Below, piece after piece: positions 1 to 17,429 of a stretch of 17,496 nt of DNA (the first letter of the stretch is position 1; every line of letters begins with the position of its first letter). Under the pieces are notes generated by a model. It was not told the DNA's origin. It did not search any database and was given only the letters and a program-made list of their open reading frames with translations. Made by a program: the position numbers and the translations under genes. Source of the DNA: Candidatus Binatia bacterium (GTDB taxonomy: Bacteria > Desulfobacterota > Binatia > Bin18). Location of the stretch: NCBI GenBank assembly GCA_963664395.2, contig CAXXIS010000007.1:1-17496 (forward strand). Direction: 5' to 3'.

Positions 1-508
1 CAACTTTTTGAGTATGATGGCCCACCGCCAGGAGGTCGTTGAGCCCATGTGGCGAGCCTATGTTGACATGTTCGAGGGCGGCATCGTCGAGCCACCGCTC
101 AAGGAGCTGGTGCGTATCAAAATTGCCTATCTGAACGGGTGTTTATTTTGACAGGGCTTTCGCTATGCATCGGTGATGCAAAAAGGACTGACCGAAGAAA
201 AAATCGCCCAACTCGAGGATTATGAAAACAGCCCAGCCTTTACTCCCCGCGAGAAGAGCGCCCTCCGCTATGCCGAAAAGCTGGCCGTTGATGTCGACGC
301 TATGGATAATGACGAGTTCTTTAGCGGGCTACAGCAACATTTTACCGACGCCGAGATCGTGGAGCTCGGTATCGTGATTGGATATGACATCGCCTTTGGT
401 CGGCTGCTGCGCGTGTTTGACGCCGACCCGAAGGTGTGTGAAGTCCCGGAGCATCGGGAGGTTGGTATAGACGTTAGCCAATCCCCCGCTCTGTCCGCAG
501 CAAAGTAG
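1..508 (+). CDS. AhpD-like / carboxymuconolactone decarboxylase family protein, probable selenoprotein (CxxU); 5'-truncated by the window edge
   Basis: Frame 2 is open from base 2 and reads NFLSMMAHRQEVVEPMWRAYVDMFEGGIVEPPLKELVRIKIAYLNGCLF-[TGA 149-151]-QGFRYASVMQKGLTEEKI..., continuing in frame into ORF 173..508. KELVRIKIAxLNGCxx(C/U) is the AhpD/CMD active-site helix. The downstream FTPREKSALRYAEKL and LQQHFTDAEIVEL segments are typical of the same family. Confidence 0.85.
152..190 (+). promoter_or_regulatory. Putative bacterial SECIS element
   Basis: Lies immediately 3' of the in-frame TGA. Upper stem TGCATC(166-171)/GATGCA(175-180) closes a GGT loop. Lower pairings are CTTT(157-160)/AAAG(182-185) and CAG(152-154)/CTG(188-190). 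The G-led apical loop starts 20 nt after the UGA, as in the bacterial SECIS model. Confidence 0.65.
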
Positions 509-518
509 TGAGTGCTAC

Positions 519-552
519 GGGTGGGTCAGCAGCCGGCCCACCCTCTTCTCTT
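519..552 (+). terminator. Probable intrinsic terminator downstream of the AhpD-like gene
   Basis: GGGTGGGTC(519-527)/GGCCCACCC(535-543) stem with one G-U pair, followed by pyrimidine-rich TCTTCTCTT; lies between convergent genes. Confidence 0.45.
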
Positions 553-574
553 GGCTAGCTTACCGGAACGTCTC

Positions 575-596
575 GGCGCTGTCGTCAGACAGCGCC
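575..596 (-). terminator. Hairpin just downstream of the thiolase stop codon
   Basis: Perfect 9-bp stem GGCGCTGTC/GACAGCGCC with a 4-nt loop, 2 nt beyond the thiolase stop. No clear U-tract. Confidence 0.4.
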
Positions 597-598
597 CC

Positions 599-1840
599 TC
601 AGATCCGTTCGATAATCGTGGCAATGCCCATGCCGCCGCCGATACACATGGTGACCAGCCCGGTGGTTTTATCCTGACGTTCGAGTTCGTCGAGGACGGT
701 TCCTATGAGCATGCTGCCGGTTGCGCCGAGCGGATGACCGAGAGCGATCGCCCCACCGTTGACGTTAACCGTGTCCGGGTCCATGTCACAGCCGCGCATG
801 GTTTTCAGGGGGACAACCGCAAACGCCTCGTTGATCTCAATCAGGTCAATATCAGTGATTGTCATACCGGCTTTCTTGAGCACCTTTTTGGTAGCCGGAA
901 CCGGTGCGGTCAACATAATAATAGGCTCATCCCCCGCGGTTGCGGTGGCGACAATCCGAGCGCGCGGTTTCATACCGTGGCTGCGGGCATACTCCGGAGA
1001 GGTAAGCAGCAGGGCTCCCGCACCGTCAACGATGCCTGAAGAATTGCCGGCGTGATGGACATGGTTGATCTCTTGCACATCCGTGTAGCGTGACAGCGCC
1101 TTTTCGTCGAAACTCAGCGTGTCGCCCTTTTGGACATACTTTCCCAGTTCCGCAAAGGAAGGGGGCAGTTGGCCAAGCCCTTCAAGCGTCGTGCCTGGTC
1201 GCGGGTATTCATCGTGTTCGAGGATCACGTTGCCTTCAGCATCGCGCACGGGGATCAGGCTCTTTTTCAGACGGCCCTCTTTGTGAGCACGGGCATAGCG
1301 CTGCTGGCTCGACAGCGCGAATGTGTCACAATCTTCGCGGCCAAACCCCTCTCGGGTGGCAATCAAATCACCTGAGATGCCTTGCTGTACAAGCGGATGG
1401 AGTTGGCGCAGATGGCGATTATGGCCGTCGATCCCACCCCGGTCCGCATTCATCGGCACGCGGGACATGGACTCCACACCACCGGCAACCACCACGTCCT
1501 GCTCGCCGGACTTGATGCCCATAGCCGCAAAATTCACCGCCTGCTGTCCTGAGCCGCAGAAACGGTTAATCGTGACACCCGTCGAATCGTTCGGCCACTC
1601 GGCTGCCAGCACAGACATCCGGGCGATGCACATCGCCTGTTCACCATACGCAGTCACACAGCCCACCACCACGTCTTCAACGTCAAGCGGGTCCAAGTGG
1701 TTCCGTTCTTTTGTGGCATTCAGGACTTGCGCCATAAGCTCCTGGGGATGGAGTCCTGCCAGCGCCCCGTCTTTCTTGCCCCGCCCACGCGGGGTGCGAA
1801 CTGCATCAATAATCCAGGCTTCGCCCATGACTTCCTCCAT
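599..1840 (-). CDS. Acetyl-CoA C-acetyltransferase / 3-ketoacyl-CoA thiolase
   Basis: Thiolase motifs [17 protein letters not shown] (catalytic Cys), [20 protein letters not shown] and TMCIGGGMG. The start may be the second ATG (1828). Confidence 0.97.
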
Positions 1841-1923
1841 CGTTTCCTATCAGACAACTCAGTTGGGAATTCTATAGCGGTGGCCGCGGGCGAGAGGGGA
1901 TTGTCCGTGTTTCAGCGACATCC

Positions 1924-1964
1924 GCCAAGTCGGGGGGACAGACAATTGCGCGTCCCGACTTGGC
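1924..1964. repeat. Intergenic inverted repeat (11-bp arms)
   Basis: GCCAAGTCGGG (1924-1934) / CCCGACTTGGC (1954-1964) with a 19-nt spacer, between the GPP34-like gene stop and the thiolase upstream region. Confidence 0.6.
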
Positions 1965-1989
1965 TCCTGACACCGCTGGCGTAGTCGGT

Positions 1990-2643
1990 TCAGCGCTGCG
2001 CCAGCGCCATCGCCGTCATGACTGCCTGTTCAATTTCAGCGATCACGCTGCCGACTTCGCGGCCGATCAGATCCATCTTGCGGAGCTGCTCGATACGGGG
2101 ACCGGACCGCTCAAGCTCGCGGGCGGCGAATATGTCGCCCAGGAAGCCACAGGCATCGACCAGACAGATCAGGGCGACATCCCTGGGATCGGGGATATCG
2201 TCGGACAGCAACACGTCCTCAATCCGCAATTTGACCTCGCGTTCGACGCGCCCGTCGATCGTCGGATAGCGCCGTGAACGGAAGACCCACAGGAATTTCT
2301 TGTCCTGGGACTCCAGAATGCCGCGCTCGATCAAACTGGCCAGCGCCTGCTGCCGGATTCCGGTCGTCTCCTGGCCGGCCAGTGTCTCTATCCAGCCCTT
2401 GGTATTCTTTGTCTCGCCGGAATTCGCAATATACGCCAGGGCCTGATCGAACATCGGGTTGCCGGTCGGCGTCGAGTCGAGACTCACGAGTTGCTCGGGG
2501 TCGGTGTCGATTCGGTTGGCGAAGGCCAAGTCCATCAGTACCGCGCCGGCAAGGATGTATTCCACGGCTCCCCCACGGATTGGCAGGAACGCCCCGTCAT
2601 CATCCAGCATCAACAGCAGTATCTCTTCAGCGAATGTCAGCAT
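1990..2643 (-). CDS. GPP34 / GOLPH3-VPS74 family protein
   Basis: N-terminal MLTFAEEILLLMLDD, then LAGAVLMDLAFANRI, LIERGILE...KKFLWVFRSRRYP and DPRDVALICLVDAC, all characteristic of bacterial GPP34 proteins. Confidence 0.85.
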   Translation of the reverse strand: MLTFAEEILLLMLDDDGAFLPIRGGAVEYILAGAVLMDLAFANRIDTDPEQLVSLDSTPTGNPMFDQALAYIANSGETKNTKGWIETLAGQETTGIRQQALASLIERGILESQDKKFLWVFRSRRYPTIDGRVEREVKLRIEDVLLSDDIPDPRDVALICLVDACGFLGDIFAARELERSGPRIEQLRKMDLIGREVGSVIAEIEQAVMTAMALAQR

Positions 2644-2653
2644 AGCGCCGTCC

Positions 2654-2989
2654 TCAGGACCCCGCGGCCAGGGCGGCAGCGCGGGTGTCGTAGTAGTCGA
2701 GCATCGTCAGGAACCCGCTGACCTCCATGACCGCTTTGCACGTAGCCCTGAGCGCGCAGACCGTCAATTTGCCGCCGCCCTGTTGGCATTTTTTGGCACC
2801 AACGAGCACGACGCGCAGGCCGGCGCTGCTGATGTAATCCATCTTGCTGCAATCAAGCAGCACGCGGGTATCGCCGCGTTCGACGATGGCCGAAATGCAC
2901 TTCTCCAGATCCGGCGCGGTAGAACCGTCAACGCGCCCGTCCGGCGCGACGACCACCACGGAGTCTATCGTTTGCTCTTCAATTTTCAT
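2654..2989 (-). CDS. STAS-domain anti-sigma factor antagonist
   Basis: Starting at ATG 2989 (MKIEEQ...): GRVDGSTAPDL, LLDCSKMDYISSAGLRVVL (phosphorylatable Ser motif) and VMEVSGF. 111 aa; the longer 3115 start in the ORF track is unlikely. Confidence 0.92.
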   Translation of the reverse strand: MKIEEQTIDSVVVVAPDGRVDGSTAPDLEKCISAIVERGDTRVLLDCSKMDYISSAGLRVVLVGAKKCQQGGGKLTVCALRATCKAVMEVSGFLTMLDYYDTRAAALAAGS

Positions 2990-3200
2990 TGGGCAGCCTT
3001 TCTCTTCAATCTCGACCGAATAGCCGCGTTCAGCCGTCTGGCTGAGGCAGGGATAGCACAGCGGCCGGTAGGCGGCAACCCTTTCTTGACCGCCAGCGAA
3101 GCCCGCTCGTGGCAAGCCTCACTCTTGGCGAGGGCGATAATTGCTGGCAGAATGTCCTAAATTCAAGAGGCTGGACACCAAATCAAAAAGGGAGATGCGT

Positions 3201-4421
3201 ATGGACAACGGAATTTTATCAGGACTGCGAGTGATCGACTGCGGGACCTATGTTGCCGGACCGGCCTCGACGACCATTATGTCGGATTTCGGGGCCGAGG
3301 TATTGAAGATTGAGCGACCCCAGGGCGGCGACCTCTACCGCTCCATGTCGGATTTACCCGGCTTTGCCAAGGCAGACCTCAACTGGGGCTGGATTCTGAC
3401 CAGTCGGAATAAGAAGAGCGTCGCCCTCGACCTGGCTTCACCCCAGGGCAGAGAGGTGCTCATTCGGCTGGTCAAGACTGCGGACGTGTTTGTCTCCAAC
3501 TACCAGCATCCGCTGCTCGAAAAGTTCCGGCTGACCTGGGCTGACCTTCAGCCGGAAAACGAGCGACTCATCTATGCCCATCTGAGCGGCTACGGAGATG
3601 CGGGCGAGGATGCCGACGCACCAACCTTTGACGCGCTGGCCTATTGGGCGCGCTCGGGCCTGATGATGAGCGTCGTGGGCATGGACGGCACGCCCAGCGG
3701 CCCACGCCCCGGCATGGGCGACCACCCGACCTCGGTCTCTCTATTTGGCGCGATTATGCTCGGCCTGTATCAGCGCGAACGCACCGGACGGGGCTTAAAG
3801 GTCGGGACCTCGTTACTGGCCAGCGGAGCCTGGGCCAACGCCTGCGACCTCCAGGCCAAATTCTGCAACGCCACGTTTCCGGAACGCGGCGACGACGGCA
3901 CGCCGCCCAACCCGCTGGCAGCCGGCTATCGGAGTCGTGACGGCAAAGCCTTCTTGGCTATCCTGCTCGACCCCGACAAGGAATTTCCCAATCTGTGCAA
4001 GGCTCTCGGCCAAGCCGACCTGGCCACCAACCCGCTGTTTGCCACCAACGAGGCCAGAGCGGAGAATGCCACAGCCCTCTTTGCCATTTTACAGGGCCAG
4101 TTTGAATCGCGGGACCTCGATGAATGGCGGGGGCTGTTCAAGCAGTCTGATATCAAATGGGCGCCCCTGCCGGTGCGAGACGAGGTGGTCGAAGACCCGC
4201 AGATGCGGGCCGCCGGCGCCTTTGTGGATATGGAGTACCCTGGGCACGGCACGCTGACGACCATCAACAGCCCCATTTTTACGACCGCCGGTGACAAGCG
4301 AACGCCCACCCCGGCGCCGCAGTTGGGCGATCATACCGGCGAGATCCTGCGCGACCTGGGGTATGACGAAGCAGCCATAGCCGCGCTGGTGCGTGACGGC
4401 GTGGCCGCGGTGGGTGAGTAA
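3201..4421 (+). CDS. CaiB/BaiF family (class III) CoA-transferase
   Basis: LSGLRVID...AGP, GAEVLKIERP-GGD, RNKKSVALDL, TFDALA (catalytic Asp region) and PAPQLGDHT. ATG at 3201 is preceded by an SD-like AGGGAG. Confidence 0.95.
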   Translation: MDNGILSGLRVIDCGTYVAGPASTTIMSDFGAEVLKIERPQGGDLYRSMSDLPGFAKADLNWGWILTSRNKKSVALDLASPQGREVLIRLVKTADVFVSNYQHPLLEKFRLTWADLQPENERLIYAHLSGYGDAGEDADAPTFDALAYWARSGLMMSVVGMDGTPSGPRPGMGDHPTSVSLFGAIMLGLYQRERTGRGLKVGTSLLASGAWANACDLQAKFCNATFPERGDDGTPPNPLAAGYRSRDGKAFLAILLDPDKEFPNLCKALGQADLATNPLFATNEARAENATALFAILQGQFESRDLDEWRGLFKQSDIKWAPLPVRDEVVEDPQMRAAGAFVDMEYPGHGTLTTINSPIFTTAGDKRTPTPAPQLGDHTGEILRDLGYDEAAIAALVRDGVAAVGE

Positions 4422-4430
4422 CTTCAGCCA

Positions 4431-4472
4431 GTAGTGTCGGATGACGCCTGTGGCTCATCCGGCCTACGGACT
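4431..4472. repeat. REP-like palindromic repeat, copy 1
   Basis: GTAGTGTCGGATGACGCCTGTGGCTCATCCGGCCTACGGACT; imperfect hairpin, near-identical to the copies at 7503 and 8023. Confidence 0.8.
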
Positions 4473-4521
4473 GGGGAGTTGGGTGATGCTGCACGTATCA
4501 TTCTGAGAAAGGGGGAATACG

Positions 4522-5163
4522 ATGAGCGATCCATCCAATATTGATCCATCACTTCGAGATTTCATCAAGGACGAAGCAGACAGAGCTCGGGGCGAAGCGA
4601 TAGCTGATACTGATCGCTTGCGTCGCGACTTCAAAGTGGCAGGTATCGTCATCACCCCTCTCCTGGCTCTGGCAGCTTTCTTTGGCATCCCGACGCTGAT
4701 CAATAACGCGGTCGAAAAAGCCATGAAAGAATATGCTATCAAGGAAGTCAGTGAGAGGGCGGAGGAAATTAGCAAGAATTTGGAAGAGACGAACGATAAA
4801 GCAGGAATGCTCCTCAATAATATTACAGAAGCCGCTAACAAGGTGGCGGAAGAAAAAAGACTCTTCCTGGAAGAGTTGGTTGGTCTGGGCATCGAAACTC
4901 GTCGCTACCGGCTAAACTTACCCCAAAGACAAGGAACTTACTCTTACGAGACCGGTCTGAAGAAGACCAAATTCGAGGCAGCCATAGTGAGTAGTTGGAG
5001 ACTTTCGGGAGCGCGCTGCTCATACTCTGACTTGGAGGAGACTTGGCGAATCAAGGTTACCAAACCGCTAGGCTGTCCAAGACTGGATGTACGGATCGTG
5101 TATTTGCCTACTGCAATCGTAAAGAAGGCTTATGATAGCGTAACACTGAATCCCATCAGGTAG
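4522..5163 (+). CDS. Hypothetical single-pass membrane protein with coiled-coil region
   Basis: 213-aa ORF with a purine-rich SD (GGGGGAA), one hydrophobic stretch (VAGIVITPLLALAAFFGIPTLI), then an E/K-rich helical segment. No family recognised. Confidence 0.7.
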   Translation: MSDPSNIDPSLRDFIKDEADRARGEAIADTDRLRRDFKVAGIVITPLLALAAFFGIPTLINNAVEKAMKEYAIKEVSERAEEISKNLEETNDKAGMLLNNITEAANKVAEEKRLFLEELVGLGIETRRYRLNLPQRQGTYSYETGLKKTKFEAAIVSSWRLSGARCSYSDLEETWRIKVTKPLGCPRLDVRIVYLPTAIVKKAYDSVTLNPIR

Positions 5164-5347
5164 GGGCGATGCGTCGTGATGAAGCACATCCTCGATACGG
5201 GAGAAACGCTTATAGATTACTTGATCGTCCTTCAAAATCCTGTTGAACTCAATGAATGCCTGACATCATGAAGACCCCACAATATACCCTAGGCCGCCAT
5301 GAACGTGGAGGAATTTCCGTCTTCCATATTTCTTGAGCCCCATACCG

Positions 5348-6682
5348 ATGCCAATAGCGACTGAGACGCTTCCCCATACGAGCGGCGCCCGGAATAACCA
5401 GAACAAGCTCCGGCCCGAAGACCAGCCGGTTCACGACTGGTATCGGTTTGTACTGTCATTCCCACCCCACTTGGTCCGTGACTATCTTGGACGGTTTGGC
5501 GTTCGCCCCTCCGAGACGGTTCTCGATCCATTCTGCGGAACCGGCACCACATTGGTTGAGTGTAAGAAACTCGGCATTCGGAGTGTCGGAATCGAGTCGA
5601 ACCCCATGGCGCACCTCGCAAGCTCGGTAAAAGTCGATTGGTCAGTCGATCGTACCGGACTTCTGGACTATGCCGAGCAGGTTGTCACGTCAGCGAGAAA
5701 AACTCTGGAACAACAGGGCATAAGTGAATGGACCGGCCTCCCGCTGTTTACCGCTACTAGACCGGAACACTCACCGCTGGCCGAACTGCGTCCTGAGCAG
5801 TTAAAATTGCTATTAAAGGACTCAATCAGCCCTCTCCCCCTGCACAAGACCTTAATGTTGCTGGACGCAATCGACCGACAGGGCGACCGGCAGATGCAGC
5901 AATACGGACGGCTCGCACTGGCCAGTGCGCTGGTACAGCGTATCGGCAACCTGAAGTTTGGCCCGGAAGTAGGGGTTGGGAGGATGAAGGATGACGCTCC
6001 GGTCTTCGATGCCTGGCTTGACCGTGTCCGGTCCATGGCAAGCAACATTGGTCTCGTCGGAGACCGAGCTGACGTGACCGCCCGAGTCATTAAGGCCGAC
6101 TCCCGACAGATCGGCCAGATTCTGGAGCCGCAATCGGTCGATGTGGTCATCACGTCCCCGCCATACCCAAACGAGAAAGACTATACGCGCACGACGCGCT
6201 TGGAGTCCGTCATCCTTGGATTGATACGCAACAAACAGGACTTGCGGGCGCTGAAACAGGGCTTGGTCAGATCCAATACGAGGGGTGTGTACAAATCGGA
6301 TACGGACGATCTTGAGGTTGCGGACAATGTCGAAATACGAAACATCGCCGAGGCCATTGAGCAACGTCGGGTTGCGTTGGGAAAAACCTCCGGCTTCGAG
6401 CGGCTCTATCCACGCGTCACCCGGCTGTACTTTGGCGGTATGGCACGACATCTGGCTTCCCTCCGGCCCGTCCTCAAACCGGGGGCGCGACTCGCTTATG
6501 TGGTGGGCGACCAGGCGTCCTATCTGCGGGTCATGATTCGGACAGGGCGTCTGCTGGCCGAACTGGCGCAATCGTTGAACTACACTGTTGCTGGCATTGA
6601 CCTGTTTCGGACCCGGCTGTCAACGGTGACCGGCGAGCAGCTTCGGGAAGAAGTCGTTCTGCTCGAATGGCCGGGTCACTGA
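5348..6682 (+). CDS. Site-specific DNA methyltransferase, amino-type (probably N4-cytosine), alpha-class motif order
   Basis: VHDWYRFVLSF, motif I VLDPFCGTGTT near the N-terminus, motif IV VITSPPY in the C-terminal half, then LKPGARLAYVVGD. Start is ATG 5348 or TTG 5333. Confidence 0.92.
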   Translation: MPIATETLPHTSGARNNQNKLRPEDQPVHDWYRFVLSFPPHLVRDYLGRFGVRPSETVLDPFCGTGTTLVECKKLGIRSVGIESNPMAHLASSVKVDWSVDRTGLLDYAEQVVTSARKTLEQQGISEWTGLPLFTATRPEHSPLAELRPEQLKLLLKDSISPLPLHKTLMLLDAIDRQGDRQMQQYGRLALASALVQRIGNLKFGPEVGVGRMKDDAPVFDAWLDRVRSMASNIGLVGDRADVTARVIKADSRQIGQILEPQSVDVVITSPPYPNEKDYTRTTRLESVILGLIRNKQDLRALKQGLVRSNTRGVYKSDTDDLEVADNVEIRNIAEAIEQRRVALGKTSGFERLYPRVTRLYFGGMARHLASLRPVLKPGARLAYVVGDQASYLRVMIRTGRLLAELAQSLNYTVAGIDLFRTRLSTVTGEQLREEVVLLEWPGH

Positions 6683-7497
6683 CCGAGAGGGGGTACGCTA
6701 TTCCGTCCCGGAACCGCTATGTGGCGATCATTGAGGCGATTTTTCACGCCAAGTATCAACCTGGACAACGGGCGGTGGCTTTCGAGCGAGAAGATATCGT
6801 CACGTTCGCATCCAGACTGAATATCCAGCTTCCCAAAAATCTGGGCGACTTGGTCTACAGCTTCAGATATCGAACTGCGCTCCCGTCGAGCATTCTTGCC
6901 GAGGCTCCTGCAGGAGAAACCTGGATCATTCGTCCCGCAGGACGGAGTCGATACCAATTTGTCTTGGTGGCCGACAGGCCGCTCATTCCTAACCCGAACC
7001 TTGCGGTGACGAAGGTCCCCGACGCGACTCCCGGAATCATCGCGAAATATGCGTTCAATGATGAGCAAGCTGTCCTGGCTCGTATTCGTTACAACCGATT
7101 GATCGACATCTTCTTGGGGATAGTCTGCTATTCGCTCCAAAACCATCTGAGGACGACTGTGCCTCAAATGGGCCAAGTAGAGACGGATGAAATATACGTG
7201 GGTGTGGACAAGAGCGGCTCTCATTACGTCGTACCTGTCCAGGCCAAGGGGGAGAAGGATACGCTCAGCAGAGTTCAGATTGAGCAAGACATAGGGCTGT
7301 GCGCCGATAGACTCCCGTCTCTGATCTGCCGGCCCGTTGGAGCGCAGCCCATGCGGGACAACCTGATTGTGCTCTTTGAGTTTGAGCACGCGAGTGGCGA
7401 TGTGAGAGTAGTTTCGGAAAAGCATTATCAACTGGTGCCACCGGACGGCGTAACCGCCGAAGACCTGACCGCCTATCGACAACGACTGTCGGATTGA
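6667..7497 (+). CDS. Putative type II restriction endonuclease (PD-(D/E)XK-like)
   Basis: Overlaps the MTase 3' end by 16 nt. QVETDEIYVG...VVPVQAKG fits a D...(Q/E)xK nuclease core. 276 aa is typical of a type II REase. Confidence 0.72.
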   Translation: MAGSLTERGYAIPSRNRYVAIIEAIFHAKYQPGQRAVAFEREDIVTFASRLNIQLPKNLGDLVYSFRYRTALPSSILAEAPAGETWIIRPAGRSRYQFVLVADRPLIPNPNLAVTKVPDATPGIIAKYAFNDEQAVLARIRYNRLIDIFLGIVCYSLQNHLRTTVPQMGQVETDEIYVGVDKSGSHYVVPVQAKGEKDTLSRVQIEQDIGLCADRLPSLICRPVGAQPMRDNLIVLFEFEHASGDVRVVSEKHYQLVPPDGVTAEDLTAYRQRLSD

Positions 7498-7502
7498 TAG
7501 CC

Positions 7503-7544
7503 CGTAGGTCGTATTACGCCTGCGGCTCATCCGACCTACGGACT
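7503..7544. repeat. REP-like palindromic repeat, copy 2
   Basis: CGTAGGTCGTATTACGCCTGCGGCTCATCCGACCTACGGACT, between convergent stops (7497 and 7543). Confidence 0.85.
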
Positions 7545-7971
7545 ACCAGCCGGCCACATCTTTTCTGGCGATGATCCGGGTCGGCGTGACCCGGACGATC
7601 AGTTCTCCCGGTACGCTGTTGCGCTTGCCGTAAGCCGCGGATTGGTCGGCGCCCATATAGCGTCCACCAATCCGCGTTGCCCAGTACAGGAGTTGCTCAG
7701 GGTCATCGCTCAGGCTGACCGTGCCGTCGATCTGGACAAACGCAAACGGCGGCGTTTCATCGTCAACGCACAGGCTGACTCGCGGGTCACGCCGCAGGTT
7801 GGCCGCCTTGACGCTGGCCTGCCACGTGGAAAAGACCAGCGTCTTAGCGTCCACATCGAACCAGACCGGGACAACGTGGGGATGGCCGTTTTCTTTGACC
7901 GTGGCGCACTGAGCGGTGCGCGCCTGTTCGGTCAGAAAGGTCCAGACTTCGTCGGTCGTCATCCTTTTCAT
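7543..7971 (-). CDS. PPOX-class (pyridoxamine 5'-phosphate oxidase-like) probable F420-dependent oxidoreductase
   Basis: ATVKENGHPHVVPVWF, KAANLRRDPRVSLCVDD and FVQIDG fit the split beta-barrel family. Likely start MKRMTT at 7971 (GAGG upstream). Confidence 0.9.
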   Translation of the reverse strand: MKRMTTDEVWTFLTEQARTAQCATVKENGHPHVVPVWFDVDAKTLVFSTWQASVKAANLRRDPRVSLCVDDETPPFAFVQIDGTVSLSDDPEQLLYWATRIGGRYMGADQSAAYGKRNSVPGELIVRVTPTRIIARKDVAGW

Positions 7972-8022
7972 GACCGGAATTGTGACCTCTTTCTCATGCT
8001 GAAGCAAAGCAGCCGCAGAAAT

Positions 8023-8059
8023 GTCGGATTACGCCTGCGGCTAATCCGACCTACGGACT
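8023..8059. repeat. REP-like palindromic repeat, copy 3
   Basis: GTCGGATTACGCCTGCGGCTAATCCGACCTACGGACT; arms GTCGGATTA/TAATCCGAC pair perfectly. Confidence 0.85.
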
Positions 8060-8102
8060 CACGCGGCCTGTCGTTCCGTGTGGCGAACTGAATCAACCAT
8101 AC

Positions 8103-8987
8103 TCAACGTAGATCGTTGGGGAGGCTGCGCTGAGTAAAACCCACTACCATCCCAAAGGCTTGCTCCGGCCCGAGGATGATGGTGTCTGCGCCGTCCGGTT
8201 CGGGCTGGAGTTGCTTGCCTCTCAGAAAATCCTGGGCTTGGCCAAGGTCTGCGGTCTTAAATACCAGGGAATAAATGCCCTCGCCGTTTTGCTCCAACTC
8301 ACGGCCTTCCGGGCTGGTCGCAGCAAGAGGTTGGACCAGTTCCACGACCGTATCTTCACCAACGGCGACAAAGGCACTCTGCTTGCGGCCCTCGGTGTGC
8401 TCCTCGTGGAGCAGGCTCCCGCCCAGAATGTCGCAATACAGCCGCTTGGCCGCGGACAGGTCCCGAACAACTACGCCGATGTGCGAGGCGCGCTGGATGC
8501 CGAGCGGATGCTGGCGCCAGGGGTCGCTTGACCAACCCGGTTCCAGCCGCGGGTCGGCTATGTAATCGCCGGACAGGGCAAACTCCAGTTGGCCGGGTGT
8601 CTGTCTCGGATGCGTCCAAATGGCCGCCGTGTCGTACGGCGGCTTCACCTCTTTGCCGACAAGATTATAGAGCCGCAGGCCAGCCGTATCGAGCCGGGCG
8701 GAGATGGCCGCAACATCGTCCACATACCAGGCAATGGAGTGGAAGTGCTGTCCGAAACGGTCGTGAAATCTTTTCACCGACGGATTCCTGAGGTTCTCCA
8801 CGCGGGCGGGCATCATCGGCTCCATGATGACGTCGCCGATGGCAATCAGGGAGGCATTACGACCGGCCAACTCTTCATAGCCGTTATAGAAGCGCGTGAC
8901 GGAGAACACGTCGTCATACCACCGGTCAACGGCTTCGAGGTCGTCCACAACGTGGGTGAGATGAAACAGCTTGCCTATGGTGAACAT
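8103..8987 (-). CDS. VOC (glyoxalase / methylmalonyl-CoA epimerase-like) family protein with two tandem domains
   Basis: Repeated modules: HLTHVVDDLEA...FHSIAWYVDD and SHIGVVVRDLSAA...VELVQP...GEGIYSLVFKT. Strong SD AAGGAGG. Confidence 0.9.
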   Translation of the reverse strand: MFTIGKLFHLTHVVDDLEAVDRWYDDVFSVTRFYNGYEELAGRNASLIAIGDVIMEPMMPARVENLRNPSVKRFHDRFGQHFHSIAWYVDDVAAISARLDTAGLRLYNLVGKEVKPPYDTAAIWTHPRQTPGQLEFALSGDYIADPRLEPGWSSDPWRQHPLGIQRASHIGVVVRDLSAAKRLYCDILGGSLLHEEHTEGRKQSAFVAVGEDTVVELVQPLAATSPEGRELEQNGEGIYSLVFKTADLGQAQDFLRGKQLQPEPDGADTIILGPEQAFGMVVGFTQRSLPNDLR

Positions 8988-9595
8988 GGGTGCCTCCTTT
9001 CAGCGAGACCCCCCACCCGTTGGGCAAACGGGGCAAATCCGTTGGGGCAGCGGGCTTTAAGTTTTTCCATATCAGTTCTTTCTGCTATCGCCGCATACAT
9101 TGCCCTTAGACTCGGTTGTGAGTGAGCAGCATCTCTCAAATTTTTACATTTACTCTTGGGATCACCTTCAGATTCGGGATTTGGTGGGAGATCAATGCGC
9201 GTCTCCAACGCCTCTGATAAGGCTTGCTCATCGGCAAGCATCCAGGCATCAAAAGTCTTGATTGCCACGCCGAGCGCTCGCGGGAGTGACAATCGGAGAT
9301 CGTCCTGGGCTCGGTCGAATTGCTGTTTCCTCTCCTCGTCGCCATCTTGATCAATAACGAGAATGATTGCGTCATAGCCCTCACGTTCGGCCAGACGAAT
9401 CCAGCCCAGAGCACGTTTCTTATAGCGTCCGCCTCTCCCTGGCTGGGCGTGCTGTCGGACTTCCCGGCTACTCACTTTTTTCCGCTCAAAGCTCACGTTT
9501 CCATCGAGCAGCCTGGACGCCAGCATCACGAGAGCACCGTCAAGACTGTTGTCACCTAGTTCGTGTACTCCTTCGGAGACAATGAGAATTCTCAT
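8975..9595 (-). CDS. DUF4276/RloB-like TOPRIM-fold putative nuclease
   Basis: N-terminal ILIVSEG (TOPRIM Glu), LVIDQDGD (DxD), FDAWMLAD, NPE..DPK and C-terminal CPNGFAPF. Start overlaps the ATPase stop by 4 nt (9592-9595). Confidence 0.7.
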   Translation of the reverse strand: MRILIVSEGVHELGDNSLDGALVMLASRLLDGNVSFERKKVSSREVRQHAQPGRGGRYKKRALGWIRLAEREGYDAIILVIDQDGDEERKQQFDRAQDDLRLSLPRALGVAIKTFDAWMLADEQALSEALETRIDLPPNPESEGDPKSKCKNLRDAAHSQPSLRAMYAAIAERTDMEKLKARCPNGFAPFAQRVGGLAERRHPCSP

Positions 9596-10773
9596 TTATC
9601 GGCTGCCACACGGGGAGAAGAGGTTTCGGCCAGAGCTTCATCACCTTCGGCTGTCCAGATCTCACCTAACGTGAACACGTCAATTTGTTCTTTGACAGTT
9701 CGGCTCTCGGAGAGCTGATGGACTACGACCGACCCATCTTTTTCCTTATGACATAGAGAGACCTCGTCGGGTTGGAACTGGTCAACAACATAAGGGGAAT
9801 GTGTGGTGAGAAGAATTTGCGTATGTCCTTGCTCAGTGATCAGTTCGCCAAGAATTTGAAGCACCTCCTGTAAACGTTTAGGGTGAATGCCATTTTCGGG
9901 TTCTTCGATAAGGAGAACGCGGGGTGGGTGGGGTAAATACAAGATAGTGAGGTAGGCCAAAACCAAGAGCATCCCATCGGAGACCTGAGCGGCTGGAAGC
10001 TCTTGTTTGTTTTTTTTTAATCTGAAGTAGAGTCCTTTTCCGTCAGCTTGCTCAAGTATAGGAATCTGTTCCGGATCGTCTATTGGTCCGGTAAATGCCT
10101 GTTCCCGAATGAGCAGAATGGAATCAACCTCTGGAAAAATCCGCTTAAAATGGTTCTCCAGATTCTCGAATTGTCGTCTGTCATAACCAAGAATGTCGTC
10201 CAGGCAGAGTGCTAATCCAAAGCCGGTCGATTCCATCCGAAACCGGCGTTTAGATTGTGCGGCAACAGGCAGGGAGAGCAGTCTTGGCACCCAGCGGTAC
10301 AAATGAACTCCGGAGAGAGCCCCATGAAGCTCGCGTGCAGCAGAGCGTTGTCCATCAGACACCTTCTCATCTCGTTCAGTGATGCGATATATCGCGGTCA
10401 TATCGAGTGGGAGGGTAGGCAAAGCAACCGACTTGTCAAACGTCAAAGCCTCTTCTATGACTTCGACATCTCGGCGCTTCGTCAGGAATCGACACGCGAT
10501 CCGGTATTTCCAGTTCTTCTCCTCGACCTTCCCTTCTGCTTCAAGAGCAACTAGCCGATCAATATCTCCTTTCCAGACCAAATCGGATCCTTGCCAGGAC
10601 CCAACAAATGCTTGTGGGAGTTTATGATCCACACTCCGACATAAAGAGGCGAGGGCTTCCAGAATGCTCGTCTTGCCAGAGTCGTTCGGCCCAATCAGGA
10701 CATGCATGGGCGTCAGGTCCAGCGTCACATCGCGCAGGGCCTTGTAGTTTTGGACCCGAAGACGGGTGATCAT
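9592..10773 (-). CDS. ABC/SMC-like AAA family ATPase (AAA_15/AAA_21 type)
   Basis: MITRLRVQNYKAL, Walker A GPNDSGKT, signature VSDGM, Walker B/D-loop LLIEEPENGIHP and H-loop TTHSP. No TM segments. Confidence 0.92.
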   Translation of the reverse strand: MITRLRVQNYKALRDVTLDLTPMHVLIGPNDSGKTSILEALASLCRSVDHKLPQAFVGSWQGSDLVWKGDIDRLVALEAEGKVEEKNWKYRIACRFLTKRRDVEVIEEALTFDKSVALPTLPLDMTAIYRITERDEKVSDGQRSAARELHGALSGVHLYRWVPRLLSLPVAAQSKRRFRMESTGFGLALCLDDILGYDRRQFENLENHFKRIFPEVDSILLIREQAFTGPIDDPEQIPILEQADGKGLYFRLKKNKQELPAAQVSDGMLLVLAYLTILYLPHPPRVLLIEEPENGIHPKRLQEVLQILGELITEQGHTQILLTTHSPYVVDQFQPDEVSLCHKEKDGSVVVHQLSESRTVKEQIDVFTLGEIWTAEGDEALAETSSPRVAADK

Positions 10774-10835
10774 TTTCCGCTCCCTAGTCTGGATTAGCCG
10801 CCTCTAGGATAACATGAGGCCGCGCGCCGATTTGC

Positions 10836-11294
10836 TCAGTCGTTGTTGGCCCAGCTCTCTTCGTAGTTCGTGCTCATGCGGCCACGCGCGCGGAGGTGCT
10901 GTATCTTCCACTCTCCGTTCACTTTGACGTAATCGTCTTCATAGCGCGCCGCCAGCCACTTGGCCTGATTGTTCTTGTAGAACGTGAACGGTCCAAAGAA
11001 GTACCAGACGCCCGTGGCCCGCTCGCCGTCAATTTTGATGATCGGGTTCATCACCTGGTGCTGGGAGAAGCTGATCAGCGTCTGGAATTTTTTGAACAGC
11101 TCGCGAATGGCCGCATGGCCCTGGGCCTTGCCGAAACCGGCACCTTCCCAGATACCATCTTGGGCAAAAATCGTGGTGATGCGCTCCGGGTTGTGATCGT
11201 CATCGCAAATATCGCAGTAGGTCGCCTTGAGTTGCTTGATGGCCTCAAGGTCCTCAATACGGGTTAATCGCTGTTCGAGTACAGCTACATCCAT
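10836..11294 (-). CDS. NTF2/SnoaL-like family protein (BaiE/LinA-like)
   Basis: LEAIKQLKATYCDICD, IFAQDGIWE, SQHQVMNPIIKIDGERATGVW and YEDDYVKVNGEWKI. SD GGAAGGAG. Confidence 0.9.
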   Translation of the reverse strand: MDVAVLEQRLTRIEDLEAIKQLKATYCDICDDDHNPERITTIFAQDGIWEGAGFGKAQGHAAIRELFKKFQTLISFSQHQVMNPIIKIDGERATGVWYFFGPFTFYKNNQAKWLAARYEDDYVKVNGEWKIQHLRARGRMSTNYEESWANND

Positions 11295-11321
11295 TGTCTT
11301 TCTCCTTCCCGTGTTTCAGAC

Positions 11322-13025
11322 TCAGTTCTCACCAGCCCGTAGCACCCGCCCCGGCAGGCCGCCGACATGTTCTCCCTCTTCGTACAGCACGTGTCCGTTG
11401 ACAATCGTGTATATAATACCTTCCGACTGCGTCACGAGCCGACGCCCGCCACCGGGTAAATCATGACGTACTTCCGGGCGTTCCGGAGAGCGAACGGTGG
11501 TCAGGTCAAAAATTGTGATGTCAGCCGCCATTCCGGGCTGCAGCAGGCCACGCCGGGGAAGACCAAAATACTGCGCCGGCTCGGAGGTGATACGCTTCAC
11601 CGCATGTTCCAGCGTAATCGCCTGTTTGTCGCGCACGAACGTGCCTAACAGATAGGTTGGATAGCCCGCGTTACACAGCATGTCGACGTGCGCACCACCG
11701 TCAGAGATACCAATCAGCGTGCGTGGGTCGCTGAACTTCTTTGCTACCCGTTCCTCATTGATATCGAGCCGCGGCAGCATGTAGTCGAGTTGGAGCCCGT
11801 CTTCAAGCGAGAGATCAAAGAAGGCGTCGAGTGGCGCCACGCCACGAGCATGGGCTATCTGTGCGATCGTTTTCCACTCAAGCGCCTTGAGGGCGGGCTG
11901 CGTCGCTTCCTTCACCTGAGTATTCTTCCAGATGTCACGCAAAAGCGGGCGGTGTTCCAGGTCAACAGCAAACGCGCGGCGAAACTCCGCGTCCGCATAG
12001 GTCCGCTTTTGATCTGCGAGCGAGGCATCACCAAATACCGGTTTCATCGAGCGCATACTGGCGAACAAGAACGGGTTGCGCAAATTAAACTCAACCGTCA
12101 GTGGCCGTACCGCAACTTGCGGGCGACAACCGCGGGCGAGCAGCGGCGCAACCTGGTCCAGGGTATCAGTCCACGCTTCGGGTGCGTCATCCCGGTCGCG
12201 CAGATTGAGCCAGGTGACGGGCCGTCCGCTCTCCGTTGCGAGCAGCTCAAGCAGCGCGTATTCTTTTTCGGAAACCGTGCTCGGCTGTTTCGTCAGCGCG
12301 ATTTCAATTGTGCCCCGACCCCGTTGTCCGAGCAGCCTGGAATAGGCCCGCAATTCAGCCTGACTGGCCAAACGGCAGGCCAGCGGTTTCGCTTTGTAGC
12401 CGATATGCTGTGGCAGGACCGTGAGAGAGAAGCCCAGGGCGCCGGCGTCAAGCGCCTCGCCCAGCAGCGCGCTGATCTTGCCTGTTTCAACCTGTGTGGC
12501 CTCACGCTCCATAGCGTCGTCCCCCATGACGAACTGACGGAACGGAGACAGGGCGGCCAGGAATCCGACGTTGATACCAATCCCACGCCGAGCGGCCGCG
12601 TCCATATACTGCGGGAAACTTTCCCAGTCCCACGGCAGGCCCTGACTGAGGACCTCGTAGGGAATGGCCTCAACGTGGACAAGGTTCGAGGTCGCAATAT
12701 CGCGCTCCTCGGGCTTGCAGGGGGCCAGTCCGACACCGCAATTGCCCATGATCACGCTGGTCACGCCATGCCAGGATGAACAGGTGACGAGCGGGTCCCA
12801 ACAGATTTGGGCGTCGTAGTGGGTATGCGGATCAATAAAGCCCGGCGCAACAATGAGATCTGAAGCGTCGATTACGCGCGCGGCCCCAGCCGTGATCCTG
12901 TCCGAGCCTTTGCCTATCTCGACGATACGACCAGCGTGGACTGCCAGGTCGGCACGAAAAGCGGGTTTCCCGCTCCCATCAACGACTGTTCCATTTTTTA
13001 TCAGTAGATCGTATACCATTGCCAT
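11322..13025 (-). CDS. N-acyl-D-amino-acid deacylase family amidohydrolase
   Basis: DLLIKNGTVVDGSG, APGFIDPHTHYD (metal-binding HxH), GVTSVIMGNCG, SDGGAH and RGLLQPGMAADITIFD. Confidence 0.93.
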   Translation of the reverse strand: MAMVYDLLIKNGTVVDGSGKPAFRADLAVHAGRIVEIGKGSDRITAGAARVIDASDLIVAPGFIDPHTHYDAQICWDPLVTCSSWHGVTSVIMGNCGVGLAPCKPEERDIATSNLVHVEAIPYEVLSQGLPWDWESFPQYMDAAARRGIGINVGFLAALSPFRQFVMGDDAMEREATQVETGKISALLGEALDAGALGFSLTVLPQHIGYKAKPLACRLASQAELRAYSRLLGQRGRGTIEIALTKQPSTVSEKEYALLELLATESGRPVTWLNLRDRDDAPEAWTDTLDQVAPLLARGCRPQVAVRPLTVEFNLRNPFLFASMRSMKPVFGDASLADQKRTYADAEFRRAFAVDLEHRPLLRDIWKNTQVKEATQPALKALEWKTIAQIAHARGVAPLDAFFDLSLEDGLQLDYMLPRLDINEERVAKKFSDPRTLIGISDGGAHVDMLCNAGYPTYLLGTFVRDKQAITLEHAVKRITSEPAQYFGLPRRGLLQPGMAADITIFDLTTVRSPERPEVRHDLPGGGRRLVTQSEGIIYTIVNGHVLYEEGEHVGGLPGRVLRAGEN

Positions 13026-13057
13026 TGCCCCCTTTTCTTTTGGCTCTGCCCGGTACT

Positions 13058-14848
13058 TTAATACTCACTGCCTGTGGCAAGAGAGAGTGCAGGTCTTTCC
13101 CCGAGCTGCCCGATGTGCCATTCGCGCGAGAGGTCCTGGGCACGCACCATGCGCGCGTAGTAACCGTCATGGACCAGCAGACTCTCGTGCGTGCCCTGCT
13201 CCGCAATACGTCCGTTGGCGAGAACAACGATGAGATCCGCGTCGCGGATGGTGCTGAGACGATGGGCTATTGCCACGGTGGTGCGCTGCGCGGTGAGCCG
13301 CGAAATCGCTTCTTGGATCAGATGTTCGGTTTCGGTGTCCACCGAAGAGGTCGCCTCATCAAGGATCAAAATCGGGGCGTCTTTGAGCAGTGCCCGCGCA
13401 ATGGACACGCGTTGCTTTTGCCCGGCGGATAATCGGACCCCGCGTTCCCCAATGAGGGTGTCATAGCCCTGGGGCAAGTCGCGGATGAATTCCTCCGCAT
13501 TGGCCGCCCGAGCCGCGGCGTGCAGCTCGGCCTCCGAGGCGTCCGGTCGGCCAAAGAGGAGATTCTGGCGGACGCTGCCGTGGAAGAGAAAGACATCCTG
13601 CAGCACCATGGCAATATTGCCGCGCAGAAAGTCGAGCTCCAAAGACCGCACGTTGTGTCCGCCAACGCGGACAGAGCCGTGTTGTGGGTCGTAAAAGCGG
13701 GGGATGAGGTTGGTTGCCGTCGTTTTTCCCGCACCAGTCGTGCCAACCAACGCGACCATAGTCCCCGCGGCGACGGTGATGTTGATGGCGCTGAGGACGG
13801 GCCGGGCCGGCTGATAGCCAAAGGTGACGTCTCGGAGCTCCACGTCCCACGTCATCCGGGCTGGCCGCACGCCGTGTGGTGGGCTGACAATATCGGGCTG
13901 GAGGTCGAGCAGCTCAAACACACGCTCCGAGCTGACCGCGGCTTTTTGGAGCGTGTCGTTGATATTGGCGAGTTGCAAGAAGGGTTGATAAATCTGGGTC
14001 AGATACACAATAAATACGAACAAATCAGCCGCACTCACACGACCGCCGAGCGCCATGGCACCACCCAGCAGCGCGATCAGCACCACCCCGACTCCGCTGG
14101 TGACTTCGATCACGCCGACCGGCACGAACGACAGGGTACTGGCCCGCAGCATATCGTCCCGCAGCCGTTTGCTGCGATTTTCGATCGCGTACGCCTGGAG
14201 CTTTTCCTGAACAAACGACTTGATCACCGTCACACCGGACAGGTTATCCTGGACCTGCGCGGTGAGGTCTTCGAGGCGCTGCCGTACCGGGCGCCACTCG
14301 GTACGGACTTTTGAAACCGAGCGAAAGACTACCCAACTGGCTACCGGCAGCGGCAGGAGGGCAACCAGGGCGAGTTGCCAGTTCAGATAGAACAGGACGC
14401 AGATCATGGCCGTCGGCAGAACAAAAGCGTTGATCGCTTCCGGAATCCCATGAGCGATAAAATCTTCGATGGCCTCAATGTCGTTGATCGAGCGGGCGAT
14501 CAACCCTCCGGTGCGTTGCGTATGGAAAAAGCTGTGGGGCAGACTCTGCAGATGGGTATACACTCGGACCATGAGGCTGTGCAGGACATCGAAAGACACC
14601 TCGTGGGAGAAACGGCCATAGCCATACCGAAACAGCCCCCGCCCGATATACACCACCAGCAGCAGCCCGCTAATGCCGATTAAGGCCGGCAGCGTTCCGC
14701 CCCCTTCGGTGATCCACTGGATAATCCGGCGGATGAGCAGGGGCGGCACCAGACCGGTGCCGGCAAAGAGGAGACCGCAAGCGACCGCCATCATCATTTT
14801 CTTTTGGCTTCCGCGCAACAATTGCAGCAGACTCAGCAGGGTGGGCAT
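13058..14848 (-). CDS. ABC transporter, fused permease/ATP-binding protein (MsbA/Sav1866-like exporter)
   Basis: N-terminal TM helices, Walker A GTTGAGKT, signature LSAGQKQR, ILILDEATSSVD and AHRLST. Start MPTLL at 14848 follows the SD AAGGAGG. Confidence 0.95.
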   Translation of the reverse strand: MPTLLSLLQLLRGSQKKMMMAVACGLLFAGTGLVPPLLIRRIIQWITEGGGTLPALIGISGLLLVVYIGRGLFRYGYGRFSHEVSFDVLHSLMVRVYTHLQSLPHSFFHTQRTGGLIARSINDIEAIEDFIAHGIPEAINAFVLPTAMICVLFYLNWQLALVALLPLPVASWVVFRSVSKVRTEWRPVRQRLEDLTAQVQDNLSGVTVIKSFVQEKLQAYAIENRSKRLRDDMLRASTLSFVPVGVIEVTSGVGVVLIALLGGAMALGGRVSAADLFVFIVYLTQIYQPFLQLANINDTLQKAAVSSERVFELLDLQPDIVSPPHGVRPARMTWDVELRDVTFGYQPARPVLSAINITVAAGTMVALVGTTGAGKTTATNLIPRFYDPQHGSVRVGGHNVRSLELDFLRGNIAMVLQDVFLFHGSVRQNLLFGRPDASEAELHAAARAANAEEFIRDLPQGYDTLIGERGVRLSAGQKQRVSIARALLKDAPILILDEATSSVDTETEHLIQEAISRLTAQRTTVAIAHRLSTIRDADLIVVLANGRIAEQGTHESLLVHDGYYARMVRAQDLSREWHIGQLGERPALSLATGSEY

Positions 14849-14856
14849 ACGCCTCC

Positions 14857-15087
14857 TTATGCGTCCAAATGGTATATTCTGGCGGTATTGCCGCCCACAA
14901 TCCTGGCTCGCTCCTCCTCGCTGCACTCACTCAGAATCTCGTCAAGAATCTGCTGTGACCGGGGAAAGGTATATTCGGGGTGGGGGTAGTTACGATTCCA
15001 GGTTGTGAGTGTGGTCCCACCGTTTACCAGCATGCGGACCAGGGCGGAGCCCATTAGCCCACAACCAATGACGCTGATCTCGCTCAT
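14857..15087 (-). pseudogene. Chimeric remnant: NAD(P)-binding dehydrogenase N-terminus fused to an amidohydrolase C-terminus
   Basis: MSEISVIGCGLMGSALVRMLVNGGTTLTTWNR (GxGxxG...WNR, beta-hydroxyacid dehydrogenase / imine reductase start) is joined directly to NYPHPEYTFPRSQ...EERARIVGGNTARIYHL (amidohydrolase_2 tail). Only 76 aa in total. Confidence 0.78.
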
Positions 15088-15254
15088 AGCCCCCTCCTCT
15101 CCATCACCTACCATATTCTCTTCTCCAGAGAGAATAGGCGTAGGGAGAACTATTTCGACTACAATTTAACGAATCCGCCTATGGATTAAGAGGATGATGA
15201 AAATCCAAGCGAGACTGGATCACGGAATCGCGGGGTACTGCCAGACGATTCCTC

Positions 15255-15785
15255 TCACGCCGCGATCTTCCATTGAGAGCTTCTCGGGCGTTTTTCAAAA
15301 AGAAGTCGGGCAGTCTTACGTGATGCTTTCTTTTCCGAAGTCTTAGCCAGCGTTAGGAGTACTTCTTTAACGGATTCGTCCTGAGAGGCTTTATGTGCAA
15401 TCACTCGTGTGAGCTTGTCTGCTGCCGCTCCAAGGACGTAAGTTGCTCCGGTTCGCTGAACCTTCCTGTTCTCAACCCGAGAGAGATGTTCGGGACTTAC
15501 GCCTAAAATCCGGGCAAAATCCTTTGCCGGCAACTCTACGTATTTGCGCAAAAACCTGACTTCAGCTCCAGTGAGCAGATCGATCTTCCGGATAAGGACT
15601 TTTGCAATTACATCATCCAATTGTTCTACTTTCGGGATTTCAACGAGTTCTTCTCCGCACTGACATGCATAGAGTGTCACCCCAACCAAAAACACATTGT
15701 CCAACCCACTCTCGACGTACTGATACGGCTGCTCAATGGTCGTCTTCTGACCCTTCAAATCCCTGTCGCAGCCAGGGCACCGCAT
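15255..15785 (-). CDS. MqsA-like antitoxin (Zn-ribbon + XRE HTH)
   Basis: CPGC...YQYVESGLDNVFL...CQCGE Zn ribbon; LTGAEVRFLRK...AKDFARILGVSPEHLSRVEN HTH. SD GGAGG. Confidence 0.85.
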   Translation of the reverse strand: MRCPGCDRDLKGQKTTIEQPYQYVESGLDNVFLVGVTLYACQCGEELVEIPKVEQLDDVIAKVLIRKIDLLTGAEVRFLRKYVELPAKDFARILGVSPEHLSRVENRKVQRTGATYVLGAAADKLTRVIAHKASQDESVKEVLLTLAKTSEKKASRKTARLLFEKRPRSSQWKIAA

Positions 15786-15794
15786 AAAACCTCC

Positions 15795-16097
15795 TTAGCG
15801 AATCACAGTTATGAGAATTAACTTGCCGTTAATCTCAACTACGCAGGACATAGACTCTCCATCAATTGTTGATCCTTGCACTTTGTAGCGCCACAGGCGA
15901 GACGGCTTACTATGTTCAATGACTCGACCATATTTCAGACAATGTCGAATATCGCGCCGACTGAGTTTTCGTTGCGCCATACGTTGTCTGGCATGGCCCG
16001 TCAACACAATCCCAACGTCTCGCTCAAGCTGTCGAATCCGTTCAATCGCCCGGCGGGGAGATAAGGGACGGTCTGGAAGGCGGTCGATCTCGCTCAT
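15795..16097 (-). CDS. DUF4258-family putative toxin (RelE-like fold)
   Basis: LTGHARQRMAQRKLSRRDIRHCLKYGRVIE...WRYKVQG...LILITV; basic 100-aa protein ending 9 nt upstream of the antitoxin gene. Confidence 0.82.
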   Translation of the reverse strand: MSEIDRLPDRPLSPRRAIERIRQLERDVGIVLTGHARQRMAQRKLSRRDIRHCLKYGRVIEHSKPSRLWRYKVQGSTIDGESMSCVVEINGKLILITVIR

Positions 16098-16184
16098 AGC
16101 TACACCTCATCATCATATTCCGACATTCCATATCGTCGCTCCTTTCTCCTGCATTCGTTCCCCCCTAGTCATCGAGGACTAGAG

Positions 16185-16218
16185 TTGATTATTTATCAAT
16201 TTTAGAGAATTCTGTCAA
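16185..16218 (-). promoter_or_regulatory. Putative sigma70 promoter and overlapping operator of the TA operon
   Basis: Minus-strand TTGACA (16218-16213) followed by AT-rich TGATAAATAAT in the -10 zone. The palindrome TTGAT-N5-ATCAA (16185-16199) covers that zone. Confidence 0.5.
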
Positions 16219-16303
16219 ACGACCTCTATTTTCGGTATTAGACGAAATAGGCCGTTATTTTCAGAATGGGCAGTGAGGCCGTTGAAATGCCAAGGAGGGT
16301 TCG

Positions 16304-17428: not shown

Positions 17429-17429
17429 G

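Follow-up and report, generated by a model that had tools for sequence, protein, structure and literature searches.

An AhpD/CMD-family gene with an in-frame UGA predicted to encode selenocysteine in a Candidatus Binatia bacterium

Gene, reading frame and genomic context

The window analyzed here, the whole stretch of 17,496 nucleotides, corresponds to bases 1-17496 of contig C8 of a metagenome-assembled Candidatus Binatia genome (G000), which comprises 14 contigs and 5.04 Mb and has an estimated contamination of 5.37%. The 3′ part of an AhpD/CMD-family gene lies at its left end. The initial annotation had described a frame from 2 to 508 that is broken only by the TGA at 149-151, and the translation of the window bore this out. 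Frame 2-511 contains 168 sense codons and one internal TGA at 149-151; it closes with TAG at 506-508, followed immediately by an in-frame TGA at 509-511, which makes tandem stops. The motif around the internal TGA reads L-N-G-C-L-F-TGA-Q-G-F-R, with TGT at 140-142 as the Cys codon. The window begins at the first base of contig C8, which leaves the frame open at base 2, and 30 codons of the 5′ end of the gene are missing beyond the contig start. The features of the locus are as follows.

2..508, + strand: 3′ part of the AhpD/CMD-family predicted selenoprotein gene, codons 31-198 and stop TAG 506-508 (from translation, the Pfam CMD match, the C1 copy and dN/dS)
140..142, + strand: TGT, Cys77, first redox residue of C-x-x-U (from the sequence and an invariant column; aligns with Cys48 of PA0269)
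149..151, + strand: TGA, predicted selenocysteine, residue 80 of the full protein (from conservation and the Cys/Sec alignment)
166..180, + strand: putative SECIS core hairpin with 5′ arm UGCAUC 166-171, loop GGU 172-174 and 3′ arm GAUGCA 175-180 (from covariation, RNAalifold and the bSECIS model)
176..178, + strand: ATG in the 3′ arm of the hairpin, a putative false start used by gene callers (from database protein starts, MQKGLTEE; no upstream Shine-Dalgarno sequence)
519..553, + strand: terminator-like hairpin (519-543; 9 bp, 7 of them G-C) with a T-rich tail, 11 nt past the stop codon (pattern match only; the terminator consensus scan found 1 vs 0.4 expected)

A complete copy of the gene with 97.6% identity is located on contig C1 of the same genome, and the missing 5′ end was recovered from this paralogous variant region. 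The C1 copy starts with an ATG at C1:1127970 behind AAGGAGG and has 198 codons, with TGA at codon 80 and TAG as the stop. A BLAST comparison aligned C8 with G000:C1:1128059-1142942 at 97.3-97.6% identity in two blocks (window 1-10316 and 10450-14839), and window 14840-17496 had no C1 counterpart among the matches listed. No overlap was found between the first 20-50 bases of the window and other contig ends. C8 looks like strain heterogeneity that was assembled as a separate contig.

The downstream neighbors of the gene encode a thiolase, a GPP34 protein and a CoA-transferase, and the upstream neighbors encode a hypothetical protein, a methyltransferase, a dienelactone hydrolase, an HbpS-like protein and a Rieske protein. 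No functional link to these neighbors was found, and no AhpC/Prx gene was adjacent. The 217-aa ORF at 1990-2643 (- strand) matched Pfam GPP34 (Golgi phosphoprotein 3 family, 1e-45), an odd family name for a bacterium. Further along the window are a DNA methylase-like ORF (5333-6682, + strand), an AAA_21 (AbiEii-type) ATPase with an unassigned 206-aa partner ORF (8975-10773, - strand) and a DUF4258 ORF (15795-16097, - strand). Together these could form a defense or toxin-antitoxin cluster where the contig is variable.

It had also been proposed that standard gene calling splits the gene and that both sides of the TGA belong to one CMD/AhpD domain. Because the table 11 ORF list gives only 173-508 (GTG start, 111 aa), the gene is split or shortened by such calling, and the state of the databases agrees with this. 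In a collection of 5.8 billion proteins, the 13 best hits (P0001-P0013) were 96-116 aa long and covered 54-65% of the query; P0001, P0002, P0005 and P0008 start at a Met nine codons past the TGA (MQKGLTEE) and lack the active site. Two other database proteins carry a Trp at the Sec column (P0014) or lack the motif region through an internal deletion (P0015), and both look like decay products. The best full-length hits were Cys forms with at most 44% identity, named CMD family protein in the source and mostly from Nocardia. The single-domain claim was likewise upheld: the read-through fragment matched Pfam CMD (PF02627) at 42.5 bits against a cut-off of 23, and the match spans residues 24-92 with the TGA inside it.

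Conservation of the TGA, sequencing reads and the downstream hairpin

Relatives were searched for in 61 genomes (G000 and 60 relatives). Seventeen other genomes of the genus carried orthologues with 88-98% identity, and one TGA was flagged in each of these. The G000 C1 copy and these 17 orthologues made up a set of 18 sequences, and a codon-by-codon comparison showed that all of them begin with ATG, carry TGA at codon 80 and meet the next stop only at codon 199. The frame is more than a chance opening, because the TGA is kept in 18/18 sequences. Pairwise dN/dS in this set was 0.064 before the TGA (codons 1-79) and 0.108 after it (codons 81-198); because of these values, both sides are under purifying selection and maintained as protein.

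The same arrangement was found beyond the genus. Further TGA homologues (L033-L043) belong to genera and families elsewhere in the class, and the 34 TGA loci examined comprised the 17 orthologues, five genes of G000 and another 12 genes from 11 more distant loci. All 34 have the TGA at the codon-80 column and a Cys three codons earlier. The five C-x-x-TGA CMD genes of G000 have the motifs NGCLF-U, NDCAL-U, NDCNL-U, NECQL-U and NSCHY-U. The four further paralogues (L045-L048) lie on C1 near 984597, 3692850, 2067124 and 1752130; a hairpin with a G-rich loop follows each TGA, and the TGA occupies the same column in paralogues at 30-48% identity. Two more CMD paralogues of G000 lack the motif. Eight chosen homologues flagged without an internal stop were used as controls. 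Four of them (L049, L050, L052 and L053) have TGC at the Sec column (GCPFC, GCSFC, DCAFC and GCSFC), and the other four have no motif and a Glu at this column. The initial annotation had placed the TGA at the second Cys of the AhpD motif and suggested asking whether homologues have Cys or a conserved TGA there; both were found, the Cys in the CxxC controls and in PA0269 (Cys51), and the column is an invariant C/U in an alignment of 25 proteins.

Two loci were observed in passing. At L039 (G054:C17), two Sec-type CMD genes with minus-strand TGA codons at 1827 and 1191 lie about 640 bp apart and form a tandem paralogue pair. L032 / L075 (G019:C1:6024924-6025427) is a decayed gene copy that reads TGG at the Sec column, has two TGA and one TAG in frame, and contains an insertion that destroys its hairpin.

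The letters at 149-151 were compared with four public runs from four studies (two RNA-library runs and two whose kind is not stated but is probably DNA), which were kept as contigs without depth, strand or transcript ends. Contigs of all four runs cover 1-189 and bridge the TGA, and none of the 40 differences listed falls at 149-151 (another 45 stand outside this list), which bears on the earlier suggestion to check the reads at this site. A strain variant at 145 changes TTA to TTG, which is synonymous, and keeps the TGA. The RNA-library contigs also bridge the TGA, and contigs from RNA libraries are no proof of transcription. The 17 independent assemblies are a stronger argument against a sequencing error than the run contigs. 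In two RNA-library runs, a 33-nt contig piece over the hairpin (window 160-192) had a depth of 110 and 320, far above its flanks; the 161-200 bin was raised in all four runs, and contigs break at about 160-192. The depth peak and the contig breaks probably reflect a word common to strains or paralogues and not biology.

A hairpin begins 14 nt past the UGA, and its loop begins 20 nt past it. In the 18 genus sequences, the closing pair is U:A in five and C:G in the other 13, with no mixed combination, and the remaining five pairs are invariant. The 60 nt from the TGA onward were aligned for 28 of 35 sequences, leaving out the near-identical orthologue loci L018, L019, L022, L023, L024, L027 and L030, and the alignment contained 25 distinct rows. 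Over these rows, 84.5% of the cells of an 8-pair helix were paired, compared with 28-46% when the 3′ partners were slid by 1-3 columns. Seven of the eight pairs change on both sides, and the covariation score was reached by 0/500 shuffles, a statistic that is overstated for related, coding sequences such as these. RNAalifold recovered the same inner six pairs, five of them with compensatory changes. At the fixed position, among the 25 distinct sequences of the 34 TGA loci, 6/6 pairs were formed in 21 and 5/6 in two; the hairpin is shifted by at most 2 nt in two sequences, L035 (6/6 pairs) and L048 (5/6). The mean number of pairs at the fixed place was 5.56 of 6 in the 25 Sec-type sequences vs 2.0 in nine non-TGA homologues.

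The bSECISearch model, as given in the Fig. 2 legend of PMC13188914, describes a bSECIS element with a loop of 3-9 nt, an upper stem of 4-16 bp, a G in the first two loop positions, a UGA-to-loop spacing of 16-37 nt, and an energy of -7.5 kcal/mol or lower. The hairpin resembles this model in loop size (GGU, 3 nt), stem length (6 bp), loop G (positions 1 and 2) and spacing (20 nt), and fits it in all four. In energy, the agreement depends on the stretch folded: the 6-bp core reached -6.0 kcal/mol in a 25-nt window, and the limit of -7.5 was passed only in a 52-nt fold (-10.0 kcal/mol) that includes a lower stem without covariation. This lower stem (CUUU/AAAG, CAG/CUG) was rejected as unsupported, with its outer columns mostly unpaired or without covariation. 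Folded on their own, 140-215 and 149-200 had z-scores of -0.09 and -0.48, no better than shuffles, and the hairpin is therefore not callable from a single sequence. An Rfam search of 1-600 with E up to 10 returned no SECIS family, and its sole match, the sRNA ar7, arose by chance (11.5 bits vs 60).

Predicted fold, active site and selenocysteine machinery

The nearest solved relative by sequence was PA0269 of Pseudomonas aeruginosa (E about 1e-13), whose NGCAYC aligns with NGCLFU. The active site of PA0269, as described in the available text of PMC3141380, consists of Glu36, Cys48, Tyr50, Cys51 and His55 on a two-helix hairpin. The equivalent residues of the Binatia protein are E65, C77, F79, U80 and R84. 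E65, C77 and C/U80 show no variation across the 25 aligned proteins, and the conservation of R84 is at least 90%. The AhpD-like features given in the same part of PMC3141380, that is, a Glu 12 residues before the first Cys, the first Cys itself and an all-helical two-helix hairpin, are all present, and the second-Cys position of C-x-x-C is filled by the predicted Sec (TGA) as a functional analogue. Two AhpD proton-relay residues were not found in this protein: the third motif position, which is His or Tyr in AhpD, is occupied by Phe79, and the His four residues past the second Cys is replaced by Arg84. Because two of the five relay residues differ, the chemistry may differ from that of AhpD.

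An AlphaFold2 model built from the 25-protein alignment (pLDDT 82.2, pTM 0.78) is all-helical and forms one compact domain across the TGA, in which helices 61-75 and 78-90 make up the active-site hairpin. In Foldseek, AhpD/PA0269 were the best matches (probability 1.00, TMt 0.79-0.84), and full-length "peroxidase-related" AhpD-core proteins reached a TMq of up to 0.73. The CMD-fold debrominase Bmp8 was also matched (TMq 0.65-0.69, 14-15% identity), no better than other family members.

PA0269 and AhpD (PDB 2O4D, 2IJC and 7XW1) share with the Binatia protein a helix-turn-helix bearing Glu and C-x-x-C, with E65/C77/U80 in the places of Glu36/Cys48/Cys51. They differ from it in having Cys51 where Sec is predicted, Tyr50 where it has Phe79 and His55 where it has Arg84, and the Binatia protein is about 55 residues longer than PA0269 at the N-terminus. 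The "peroxidase-related" proteins of 180-190 residues (3C1L, 6K40 and 2PFX; TMq 0.72-0.73) are closer to it in length.

The initial annotation had proposed searching the genome for selA, selB, selC and selD. The proteins SelA (596 bits), SelB (390 bits) and SelD (316 bits) all scored over the curated cut-offs, and ARAGORN found one tRNA-SeC adjoining selA. These genes are all on C1, the same contig as the full gene copy. RF2 is also present (504 bits, over its cut-off). TGA terminates 7/11 Pfam-supported ORFs of the window and 953/2640 long open frames on C1, where it is the commonest terminator. Because of the RF2 gene and these counts, TGA is a normal stop in this genome, and the site at 149-151 is a local exception.

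Alternative readings and place among known families

In our reading, frame 2-508 makes up the 3′-terminal five-sixths of a single AhpD/CMD-fold redox gene of 198 codons, in which the UGA is very probably decoded as selenocysteine, giving a Cys77-x-x-Sec80 active site; we put the probability of this reading at about 0.9. The decoding as selenocysteine, which the initial annotation had claimed from the motif, is supported by the conservation of the TGA, the Cys/Sec pairing, the covarying hairpin, the Sec machinery and the AhpD-like fold together. The product is most likely a selenol/thiol oxidoreductase.

Four other explanations were weighed against this. A recent inactivation of a former CxxC gene would make the TGA a nonsense mutation, and decayed copies do exist in the family, namely L032 (TGG plus stops), P0014 (Trp) and P0015 (no motif region), to which L032 is akin. 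Such copies have lost the TGA and the hairpin, the opposite of what is seen here, where the TGA persists in 18/18 orthologues with no other in-frame stop, in paralogues as distant as 30-48% identity and with low dN/dS both upstream and downstream; the probability of a pseudogene is vanishingly small. An error of sequencing or assembly at 149-151 could be suspected, since C8 is a short variant contig and the genome was assembled from a metagenome and has the contamination given above, but it has a negligible chance of being right, as the same TGA stands in the C1 copy and 17 other assemblies, four public runs cover the site with none of the listed differences at it, and the strain variant at 145 keeps it.

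The other two explanations accept the TGA. The UGA might terminate, so that a 79-residue N-terminal peptide and a separate 110-residue C-terminal protein from ATG 176 are made. RF2 is present, gene callers predict the C-terminal ORF, and P0001-P0013 have the corresponding length and coverage. However, ATG 176 has no Shine-Dalgarno sequence and lies inside the hairpin arm. The TGA is located within both the CMD match and the predicted single helical domain and coincides exactly with the catalytic Cys column, and of the two parts the N-terminal one is more strongly constrained. It is thus extremely unlikely that the halves are expressed separately, which had been raised earlier as an outcome to check. 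It is very unlikely that the UGA is read without selenium as Trp, Cys or Gly, by genome-wide reassignment or local leaky decoding. The TGG at the Sec column of decayed relatives points that way, but because RF2 scores over its cut-off and long frames end more often in TGA than in either other stop codon, TGA is not reassigned; moreover, the Sec pathway is complete, and the Cys and Glu homologues lack the SECIS-type hairpin, which covaries here at the distance required.

With the UGA decoded as selenocysteine, a working scheme can be put together from these parts. The hairpin at 166-180 with its GGU loop would be bound by SelB carrying GTP and Sec-tRNA(Sec), and selenocysteine would be inserted at UGA 149-151 in place of termination by RF2. 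In M. tuberculosis AhpD, the second residue of the motif is the nucleophile. By analogy with the family, Sec80 would lie three residues past Cys77, at the opening turn of helix 78-90 and opposite the conserved Glu65 on helix 61-75. Its selenolate would attack an oxidized substrate, which may be a peroxide or the sulfenic acid or disulfide of a partner, and the selenenyl-sulfide formed with Cys77 would then be reduced by a cellular reductant.

A different range of substrates was also considered. Deiodinase is a selenoenzyme, which provides a parallel for reductive dehalogenation, and the five C-x-x-Sec CMD paralogues of this sponge-associated Binatia genus, with Arg where AhpD has its relay His, might be lineage-specific selenol enzymes for electrophiles other than those of peroxide or AhpC reductases, for example in debrominating sponge metabolites. 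This proposal is a long shot. The likeness to Bmp8 is one of fold only, in a comparison drawn from PDB titles, and our literature search on Bmp8 as a debrominase found no paper.

The initial annotation had counted AhpD-like CxxU proteins among the known prokaryotic selenoproteins, and the literature confirms this class. Table 3 of PMC1088965 (Sargasso Sea, 2005) lists AhpD-like (27 sequences) and CMD-domain (4 sequences) selenoproteins, both with a CxxU motif. The accessible portion of PMC2398784 (GOS, 2008) gives AhpD-like 1 (COG2128, 299 sequences) and AhpD-like 2 (pfam02627, 70 sequences), and AhpD-like/CMD selenoproteins also appear in the portions available of a 2026 review (PMC13188914) and of BSepDB (PMC13326102). 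The Binatia gene has both marks of the CMD/AhpD-like 2 CxxU class, a PF02627 match above the gathering score and the C-L-F-U motif. It resembles the selenoproteins of Zhang, Fomenko and Gladyshev, as far as the accessible text of these sources describes them, in its CMD/AhpD domain, in Sec at the second Cys, in a hairpin with a G in a small apical loop after the UGA and in having widespread Cys homologues. It differs from them in that the Binatia subfamily is not named in the portions available of PMC1088965, PMC2398784, PMC13188914 and PMC13326102, and in that one Binatia genome holds five paralogues. A limited literature search found no publication on Binatota selenoproteins; in PMC9999580, "selenocysteine" occurs in the reference list only.

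Among the curated NCBIfam models, none reached its cut-off with the full-length protein. The best-scoring one was NF053654, "YciW-related (seleno)protein", which is Sec-containing by NCBI annotation and aligned over 1-170 of 179; it gave 83 bits with the fragment, of which it was also the best NCBIfam match, and 85.4 bits with the full-length protein against a cut-off of 310, which makes the Binatia protein a relative and not a member. The models cited by the review were also missed (TIGR01926, 39.8 vs 81.8; NF041047, 12.3 vs 110). Because the NF053654 and TIGR01926 cut-offs are missed and two relay residues are absent, we filed the gene as a new subfamily member of the AhpD/CMD superfamily and not as an AhpD orthologue.

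The new part of this finding is small: a subfamily that falls below every curated NCBIfam cut-off, is shortened in the protein database and has five paralogues in one genome. It adds a clean, covariation-supported example of a bacterial SECIS element with a 3-nt GGU/GGC loop. Its main significance is an annotation fix, and the knowledge of selenoproteins itself is unchanged. Because no NCBIfam model reaches its cut-off, the Binatia gene keeps being shortened by annotation pipelines; with a subfamily model built from the present alignments, some five selenoproteins would be regained in each genome of the genus.
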